Source: Escherichia coli
GTDB taxonomy: Bacteria; Pseudomonadota; Gammaproteobacteria; Enterobacterales; Enterobacteriaceae
NCBI RefSeq assembly: GCF_030013595.1
Contig: NZ_CP122768.1
Length of the DNA: 64,000 nucleotides
Strand: one strand, 5' to 3'
In this document: one piece after another, positions 27,301-30,300 of the stretch
How positions within the stretch are numbered: position 1 is the stretch's first letter
Layout of the letters: each line of letters opens with the position of its first letter
Program-made: the position numbers

Positions 27301-30300
27301 AAGAATACGCCCGTGTTTCCTGAATAGATTGACTTTTTTATCCAACCACACTTCAGCGCACTGCGTTTAAAAAATGCCTCATTCTTATGCGGAATATCAT
27401 CATTTCATCATGATGTCTTTGATGAGCGGTGAACACAATACACTTGCGCTGTCTCTTCAGGATGAATCCCCTGGTCTGGTGCCTGTGGGCTGATGTTGCA
27501 GCAGAGCTAAGGTTGCTTAAACGCTACTCAGTATTCACTTTTCAGAGGATGAAATTTATGAACAGGACCAGTCCCTATTATTTTCGCCGCTCAGTACTTT
27601 CCTTATTGATATCTGCCTTAATATATGCCCAGCCCGGGATGGCGGCCTTCACTACTAATGTTATTGGTGTGGTAAACGATGAGACTGTAGATGGCAACCA
27701 ACGAGTAGATGAACGAGGTACAACAAATAACACTCATATTATCAACCATGGCCGGCAGGAGGTCTATGGTGGGATATCTAATAGTAGTATTATTGAAACT
27801 GGTGGCGAGCAACTAGTATCAATCCATGCCGATATTAACGGGCAAGCTAATAATACAACCATTAATGGAGGCAGACAGTCAATTGAGTACGGAGGAATTT
27901 CTACTGGCACGATAATCGAAAGTGGCAATCAATATGTTTATAAAGGTGGTACCAGCAATGACACGACAATTAAGGGCGGTACTTCACGCATAGAGGGGGG
28001 ACTGCAAATGGAACAATCATTGATGGTGGAGGCCAGTCAGTATCAACTCAGGGGCATGTTGACGGTACGACGATAAATAAGTCTGGTTATCAGGACATCA
28101 CGCAAGGAAGTCTGGCGACGAACACAACCATAAATGGTGGGCGACAGTATGTTGAACAGAGCACAGTAGAAACAACCGCCATTAAAAATGGCGGTGAGCA
28201 AAGAGTATATGAGAGCCGTGCGCTGGACACGACGATTGAAGGCGGAACTCAGTCTCTGAATAGTAAGTCAACGGCAAAAAATACGCAGATCTATTCTGGT
28301 GGTACGCAAATTGTTGATAACACGAGCTCCTCGGATGTTATTGAAGTTTATTCCGGCGGCGTGCTTGATGTTAGAGGTGGTACGGCAACTAATATTACTC
28401 AGCACGATGGAGCCGCTTTAAAAGTAACGACTTACGATTTGACGGTGAGCGGTACGAATAGTGAAGGGGCATTCTCCATCCACAATAACGTGGCAGAGAA
28501 TGTGTTGCTGGAAAACGGTGGTCATTTAGACATAAACGCATATGGTTCGGCAAATAAGACGATTATTAAAGATAAAGGAACAATGTCAGTTTTAACGAAT
28601 GCTAAAGCTGATGCGACCCGAATAGATAATGGCGGCGTTATGGATGTTGCCGGAAACGCGACAAATACCATAATTAATGGTGGCACACAGAATATTAATA
28701 ATCATGGTATTGCCACGGGCACCAATATCAACAGTGGAACGCAAAATATCAAGAGCGGCGGGAAAGCTGACACGACAAATATATCCTCTGGGAGCCGGCA
28801 GGTTGTTGAGAAAGATGGTACGGCAACTGGCAGCAATATTAGCGCCGGAGGCTCGCTGATTGTCTATACCGGCGGTATTGCACATGGGGTTAACCAGGAG
28901 ACGGGCAGTGCTTTAGTTGCCAACACGGGCGCAGGGACTGATATCGAAGGATACAACAAGCTCTCTCACTTCACTATTACCGGAGGAGAGGCTAATTATG
29001 TTGTGCTGGAAAATACCGGCGAACTGACGGTAATGGCTAAAACCTCGGCGAAAAATACTACCATTGATGCTGGCGGTAAGCTGATTGTCCAGAAGGAGGC
29101 TAAAACAGATAGCACCAGACTTAATAATGGTGGCGTTCTGGAGGTTCAGGACGGTGGTGAGGCTAAGCATGTTGAGCAACAATCCGGCGGCGCATTAATT
29201 GCTTCCACGACCTCCGGAACACTTATCGAAGGAACCAACAGTTATGGTGATGCTTTCTACATCAGGAATTCAGAAGCTAAAAATGTAGTGCTGGAAAACG
29301 CTGGCTCATTAACAGTCGTCACTGGTTCCCGGGCAATTGACACGATTATTAATGCCAACGGCAAAATGGATGTTTATGGAAAAGATGTTGGTACTGTACT
29401 TAATAGTGCTGGTACCCAAACAATATATGCCAGTGCCACTTCTGAAAAAGCAAATATCAAAGGTGGCAAGCAAATGGTATATGGTTTAGCCACTGAGGCA
29501 AATATCGAAAGTGGTGAACAAATTGTTGATGGTGGGTCAACAGACAAAACGCACATCAATGGCGGTACGCAAACCGTTCAGAATTATGGTAAGGCGATCA
29601 ATACCGATATCGTCTCTGGCCTACAACAAATTATGGTAAACGGGACAGCGGAAGGTTCCATTATTAATGGCGGTTCACAGGTAGTTAATGAGGGCGGTCT
29701 GGCTGAAAACTCGGTGCTTAATGACGGCGGCACTCTCGATGTGCGGGAGAAAGGCAGCGCAACGGGGATACAGCAAAGTAGCCAGGGCGCGTTGGTGGCA
29801 ACCACCAGAGCGACGCGGGTCACAGGGACACGCGCTGATGGCGTCGCGTTCAGCATTGAGCAGGATGCGGCGAACAATATCCTGCTGGCAAATGGCGGCG
29901 TGTTAACCGTGGAGTCAGACACCACTTCCGCCAAAACACAGGTCAATGCGGGCGGGCGGGAGATCGTCAAAACAAAAGCCACTGCGACAGGCACGACGCT
30001 CACCGGCGGCGAACAAATCGTCGAGGGGGTGGCGAATGAGACAACGATTAACGACGGCGGAATACAAACAGTTTCGGCTAACGGTGAGGCAGTAAAAACA
30101 ACGATTAATGAAGGCGGTACGCTGACAGTCAACGATAATGGCAAAGCGACAGATATCATCCAGAACAGCGGTGCCGCTCTCCAGACGAGCACGGCTAACG
30201 GTATTGAAATCAGCGGTACTCACCAGTACGGCACCTTTTCCATTGCCGGAAATTTAGCGACCAATGCGTTGCTGGAAAATGGCGGTAATTTATTGGTATT

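Follow-up and report, generated by a model that had tools for sequence, protein, structure and literature searches.

Does a run of guanines that splits an adhesin gene of Escherichia coli mark a switch, a dead gene or a fault in the data? The question is raised by ypjA (EhaD), an autotransporter adhesin gene on the + strand at 27558..32131 of contig NZ_CP122768.1 (assembly GCF_030013595.1; numbering is that of the 64,000-nucleotide stretch analysed, hereafter the window), in which a GGGGGG run at 27995-28000, 437 nucleotides (nt) into the gene from its ATG at 27558, coincides with a -1 frameshift. A first-pass annotation of the same DNA had described a YpjA-like autotransporter split at this tract and had proposed slipped-strand phase variation, with a fixed pseudogene or a sequencing error as the fallback. 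It is towards the fallback that the evidence points, tract lengths in the population being nearly monomorphic and the close relatives of the window carrying seven guanines; as far as genome comparison can tell, ypjA has here probably suffered a real and recent loss-of-function frameshift, and would be a pseudogene at a modest mutational hot spot.

The two reading frames that meet at the run are those first described. An open reading frame (ORF) at 27429..28076 exists and stops shortly past the guanines, as translation confirms; its first position is merely the first GTG past an upstream stop, and ypjA starts at ATG 27558 (MNRTSPYY..., as annotated in relatives), with an alternative in-frame ATG at 27549. 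Counted from 27558, this + strand ORF (27558..28076) encodes a 5' fragment of 172 amino acids (aa), in which an N-terminal leader is followed by some 118 passenger residues that include one AIDA-type repeat, and then by 25 residues read out of frame (LQMEQSLMVEASQYQLRGMLTVRR) between the run and the TAA at 28074-28076. The adjacent frame, whose last upstream stop lies at 27971-27973, becomes open at 27974, 21 nt ahead of the run, and its translation then meets no stop until 32129-32131. The 3' part of ypjA that it holds (28001..32131, + strand) supplies the remainder of the passenger, followed by the beta-barrel, and the earliest start codon in this frame is a GTG at 28361. Insertion of one G at the run yields 4575 nt, or 1524 codons plus a stop, with no internal stop; the first-pass expectation that a one-G change fuses the frames therefore stands, and only its estimate of ~1528 aa needs correction, to 1524 aa or, from ATG 27549, to 1527 aa.

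The ancestral state of the tract was sought in the closest complete genome, that of the pig isolate HCP5S3_I2 (NZ_CM149870.1), which carries G7 and an intact 1524-aa ypjA, 99.9% identical to the window over 4801 nt. Positions 500-32294 of the window are collinear with this chromosome over 31.8 kb, except for an IS3 element found only in the relative, and across this whole distance the two sequences differ by 15 substitutions and a single gap, which is the missing G. The same 31.8 kb contain 42 homopolymer runs of at least 6 nt, eight of them of at least 7 nt, and all besides the ypjA run are equal in length; these include a second G6 run within ypjA (31552..31557, + strand), which is in frame, also present in K-12 and unchanged in relatives. 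With six G/C homopolymers of 6 nt and two of 7 nt in the 64-kb window, a G6 run is by itself unremarkable; what goes beyond chance is that the frame breaks exactly at the run and that this is the sole indel in 31.8 kb. Both close relatives of the window are G7, and its ypjA copy differs from that of HCP5S3_I2 by two single-nucleotide polymorphisms (SNPs) plus the indel. The comparison thus identifies the site at 27995..28000 (+ strand) as that of an apparently derived 1-nt deletion, G7 to G6, in an ancestral GAG GGG GGG (Glu-Gly-Gly), and because just two substitutions separate the two gene copies, the deletion would be recent. A comparison with orthologues had been suggested as a check at first pass; run here, it finds G7 and an intact gene in the closest relative.

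The broken gene is a type Va autotransporter adhesin and the orthologue of YpjA/EhaD, an assignment that combines synteny, identity, barrel and passenger repeats; its initial recognition as YpjA-like is in this way borne out by profile matches and gene order as well as by the 99.9% nucleotide identity. The 4.8-kb region is 99.5-99.9% identical to E. coli chromosomes whose annotation calls the gene 'adhesin-like autotransporter YpjA/EhaD', and relatives share the order proVWX, nrdHIEF, gab genes, amylase-family gene, tRNA(CAT), ypjCB, recombinase remnant and ypjA. In the repaired protein, residues 1083-1524 match TIGR01414 (autotrans_barl) over model positions 5-432 of 432, scoring 322.5 bits where the cut-off is 16, and correspond to the C-terminal, 12-stranded autotransporter beta-barrel translocator domain (30803..32128, + strand), and the strand-loop-strand repeat TIGR04415 is found in 10 stretches of the repetitive, beta-helical passenger (234.6 bits, cut-off 30); the AIDA-I and Antigen 43 (Ag43) models match partially. 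The 5' fragment contains a Pfam AIDA match (PF16168, residues 69-124, E = 2.3e-4), and its leader-like N-terminus, MNRTSPYYFRRSVLSLLISALIYAQPGMA/AF, is by sequence inspection only a putative Sec signal peptide. No uninterrupted frame joins leader, passenger and barrel in the window copy.

Of 1448 residues aligned with K-12 YpjA, the repaired protein shares 1368, and it is mainly in the first ~200 that the two diverge. K-12 YpjA (b2647), which corresponds to EhaD of enterohaemorrhagic E. coli O157:H7 and is an AIDA/Ag43-like adhesin linked to biofilm formation, resembles the window copy in its locus (tRNA - ypjCB - pinH remnant - ypjA - ssrA region), its barrel and its strand-loop-strand repeats; the window copy differs in being frameshifted and in that its first ~200 codons form a divergent 5' allele, with GGGGGGG where K-12 has GGGAGGG. 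YpjA has been placed among the biofilm-forming Ag43/AIDA-like autotransporters, and neither its structure nor its mechanism is yet known (PMC9289746). Antigen 43 (flu/agn43), a phase-variable, self-associating autotransporter of E. coli, is placed with YpjA by structure and function in SAAT-like group 4 (PMC9289746), but the window protein, which once repaired reaches 352.8 bits against an equivalog cut-off of 1200, is not Ag43.

The most likely origin of the lesion would be replication slippage at the run, with loss of one G from G7. The ensuing -1 frameshift would lead to a stop 25 codons further on and leave a predicted 172-aa fragment that, lacking the beta-barrel, could not be displayed. 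The remaining 1377 codons, which have neither a start codon of their own before 28361 nor a signal peptide, would not be made as a secreted protein, and surface YpjA would be absent from this strain. Restoration of G7 would toggle the frame, G6 being out of frame and G7 in frame; such a reversion is physically possible, presumably at ordinary mutational rates only. Loss of this gene is not confined to the tract: ypjA is covered to at least 80% in only 2435 of 5426 complete genomes, surveyed genomes also contain copies damaged by IS1 insertions, and ST131 lacks ypjA (PMC5654935). The pattern fits a dispensable, often degraded gene that may be under weak or fluctuating selection.

To place the tract in the population, its 81-nt context with G5, G6, G7 or G8 was searched in the 5426 complete E. 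coli genomes. The 5' allele is carried by 768 of them (the same 768 matched in each search), and tract lengths were counted from matches of at least 99% identity with identical 81-nt flanks, which leaves ~250 of the 768 carriers, with SNPs in the flanks, unclassified. Within these counts, 503 genomes have G7 and 12 have G6 (11 of the latter at full length), with G5 and G8 in 0 genomes each, so that about 98% of the classified genomes are G7 and the remainder G6. All ten G6 copies inspected (675SK2, CRE78, 605, 572, ECKH-505, Nord122, Ch1, B1.H1.18, UID2309220041 and FCI48) are RefSeq pseudogenes, labelled 'frameshifted' or 'frameshifted; internal stop'. They have G6 for G7 at the same codon as the window and in the identical 81-nt context, but stand on other SNP backgrounds; those of the 675SK2 group add a nonsense codon, W1040*, whereas the window copy is otherwise undamaged. 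Identical lesions are therefore already annotated in public genomes. An exact look-up of truncated products of 172, 175 and 215 aa among 15 billion proteins found none on record, a result that is uninformative as to further G6 carriers.

The G6 copies do not descend from one event. When the initial 3 kb of ypjA are aligned for 13 sequences (the window plus two genomes with G7 and ten with G6; 24 variable columns), the change from G7 to G6 appears to have arisen at least five times, on distinct SNP or context backgrounds. The 18-SNP haplotype of the window recurs in HCP5S3_I2, which is G7, but in none of the ten aligned G6 genomes, and Ch1 has the haplotype of the G7 strain 746 plus one private SNP. 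B1.H1.18, UID2309220041 and FCI48 have private SNPs in common and a downstream context of their own; 675SK2, CRE78, 605, 572 and ECKH-505, from Switzerland and Taiwan, are united by a private SNP and an upstream integrase; and Nord122 has the SNP of the 675SK2 group in a different context and without the W1040* codon. Neither a return to G7 nor an expansion to G8 is evident among the surveyed lineages.

The 675SK2 group also indicates the order in which two lesions were acquired. In a search with a 2.75-kb query from 675SK2, its five G6 members are mutually identical, and no fewer than 39 further genomes match them in all but the tract, which is G7; W1040* (TGG to TAG, codon 1040; seen in NZ_CP027701.1 and also in NZ_CP028578.2) is present both in the G6 members and in these G7 genomes. 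Because at least 39 genomes have the same haplotype with G7, the nonsense mutation came first and the G deletion then struck a gene already dead. W1040* marks a widespread dead-ypjA lineage, a subclade of which later gained the G7-to-G6 change. The codon is common to at least 44 complete genomes, mostly of human clinical isolates of ~4.7-5.0 Mb.

Four points weigh against taking the window copy as a real and young pseudogene. The window is a G6 singleton on its SNP background and both of its close relatives are G7, which gives no confirmation by descent; five identical deletions in ~770 genomes amount to a high recurrence at one site, which leaves room for selection for loss or for low-rate switching; a base-calling error, or heterogeneity of the tract within the isolate, may be involved; and the exact-match counts cover only carriers with identical flanks, about 250 of the 768 having SNPs there.

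The rival that survives best is a sequencing or assembly artefact, according to which the true tract is G7, ypjA is intact and one G was under-called (for example by nanopore, Ion Torrent or 454 sequencing, or through poor polishing). Homopolymer errors typically leave a run one base too short, G7 would rank among the longest G/C runs of the region, the 64 kb having just two more of that length, both close relatives of the window are G7, and the G6 tracts of Ch1 and Nord122 are singletons like that of the window. An error-prone assembly would, however, show several such indels, whereas the other homopolymers of the 31.8-kb comparison match an independently assembled relative throughout, including both other G7 runs, an A8 and a T8. 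The 25 kb of prophage sequence downstream, whose best match elsewhere is 97.5% identical, were unusable as a further control for assembly errors. Moreover, G6 is real elsewhere, as it is found in five assemblies of one subclade (Switzerland, Taiwan) and in four of another (Poland, Thailand, Colombia). We consider an artefact unlikely on this balance, and a true frameshift in ypjA the better account.

If the deletion is real, it must be asked whether it is one position of a switch. Slipped-strand phase variation would have the G tract toggle YpjA between ON (G7) and OFF (G6) at high frequency, with immune escape or altered adhesion as the outcome; the tract does lie near the 5' end of a gene for a surface adhesin, where a 1-nt change toggles the frame, and the identical G7-to-G6 change has arisen independently at least five times. 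The idea invites comparison with NalP and MspA of Neisseria meningitidis, likewise encoded by autotransporter genes with a coding G/C homopolymer whose length sets the frame; their poly-C tracts, however, vary between 6 and 15 nt, 40-90% of isolates are ON and expression according to tract length has been shown by immunoblot (PMC3723659), whereas the ypjA tract is almost monomorphic, with G7 or G6 only and ~98% G7. Further arguments against a switch are that no lineage is seen returning to G7, that the OFF state is inherited in the 675SK2 subclade from Switzerland and Taiwan in a gene already carrying W1040*, and that the K-12 allele is interrupted (GGGAGGG). At this site K-12 reads GTA GAG GGA GGG AGT (GAGGGAGGGAG) and the repaired window allele ATA GAG GGG GGG ACT; the run is no more than two GGG glycine codons after GAG, broken in other alleles by the synonymous GGA, and the tract appears allele-specific rather than conserved across alleles.

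A neutral run of equal length in the same window leads to a similar view. The non-coding G7 run at 11276-11282, in the alaE-stpA intergenic region, is G7 in ~261 and G6 in ~241 genomes (identical 37-nt flanks). Its length therefore varies far more than that of the run in ypjA, which looks constrained in frame: the ypjA run seems to keep its in-frame length, with off-lengths rare, whereas a contingency locus would display the reverse. E. coli is mismatch-repair proficient and avoids simple repeats in its coding regions, where simple sequence repeats (SSRs) are depleted (PMC3315296). Its indel rate climbs exponentially with homopolymer length (PMC8510543), a rise that would be enough to account for a modest hot spot at G7. 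Of the initial proposal, a slippage origin remains plausible, as the change recurs on at least five backgrounds; the classical switch does not hold up against ~503 G7 genomes to 12 with G6 and a K-12 gene without the tract, and is in our judgement very improbable. The adhesin switches known in E. coli operate through Dam/OxyR (Ag43), Dam/Lrp (pap) or DNA inversion (fim) and not through SSRs, the switching of Ag43 being epigenetic, with Dam methylation and OxyR competing at the promoter and no repeat tract involved.

A subdued version of the same idea, in which the GGG-GGG codon pair would act as a low-rate contingency site in lineages that have this 5' allele, with recurrent selected loss of an immunogenic or costly adhesin and occasional reversion, is just as hard to credit; if true, it would represent an SSR-type adhesin switch not described for E. 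coli. Should the recurrent loss by itself prove to be selected, this would add evidence for ypjA as a dispensable, often counter-selected adhesin.

Recoding, with G_GGG_GGA serving as a -1 slippery heptamer or as a site of transcriptional slippage so that some full-length YpjA is made, is extremely unlikely, as the heptamer, which on inspection formally fits X_XXY_YYZ and at which a -1 shift would restore the frame, is a product of the deletion only and so cannot be an evolved signal, and as no stimulatory structure lies downstream (minimum free energy of 28002-28100, -16.9 kcal/mol vs a shuffle mean of -20.5, z = +1.27). To our knowledge, neither G-only slippery sites nor transcriptional slippage at G6 are known to be efficient in E. 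coli.

An invertible promoter was considered separately and rejected. Part of a recombinase gene (pinH-like DNA invertase), annotated as an incomplete 'recombinase family protein' in relatives and as a pinH pseudogene in K-12, does lie upstream of ypjA (26983..27150, + strand) and has been kept in this fragmentary form in K-12 and all the relatives, but there are just weak AT-rich inverted repeats and no convincing + strand promoter match; a surviving invertible element at 26983-27150 is thus not supported.

The frameshift in ypjA is, in sum, a feature that is real and was correctly described, yet it is ordinary and matters little beyond annotation. In adhesin or virulence typing the strain should score as ypjA-negative (pseudogene), though the gene is 'present' by BLAST. 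For short G runs at frame breaks in E. coli more generally, decay or error is likelier than a switch, and a quick discriminator is to set the spread of tract lengths beside the spread seen at a neutral run of equal length.

Further observations concern the surroundings of ypjA. Just upstream of the gene, at 27374-27493, the annotation of relatives has a 'hypothetical protein' of 39 aa (WP_001120794.1), which overlaps the 5' extension of the ORF starting at 27429 and is probably a leader region or untranslated region rather than a gene. Upstream, the gene for an amylase-family glycosyl hydrolase (21524-23776, - strand) is intact in the window (750 aa) and carries W111* in HCP5S3_I2; with this gene lost in HCP5S3_I2 and ypjA lost in the window, each strain would have lost a different accessory gene. 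The IS3-family element of NZ_CM149870.1, from which the window is free, sits at window position 24115-24122, between the amylase-family gene and the tRNA gene at 24336-24411; the two alignment blocks have 8 bases in common there, around ACAAACT, perhaps a target-site duplication. Directly downstream of ypjA, a tyrosine integrase (32387-33649, - strand) is followed by a lambdoid prophage that extends to at least 57000, where the closest relative has a different element with P4-type genes. The prophage encodes a terminase, a portal protein, a replicative helicase and an ompC-like porin, together with a tRNA-Gly(tcc) at 49443-49517.

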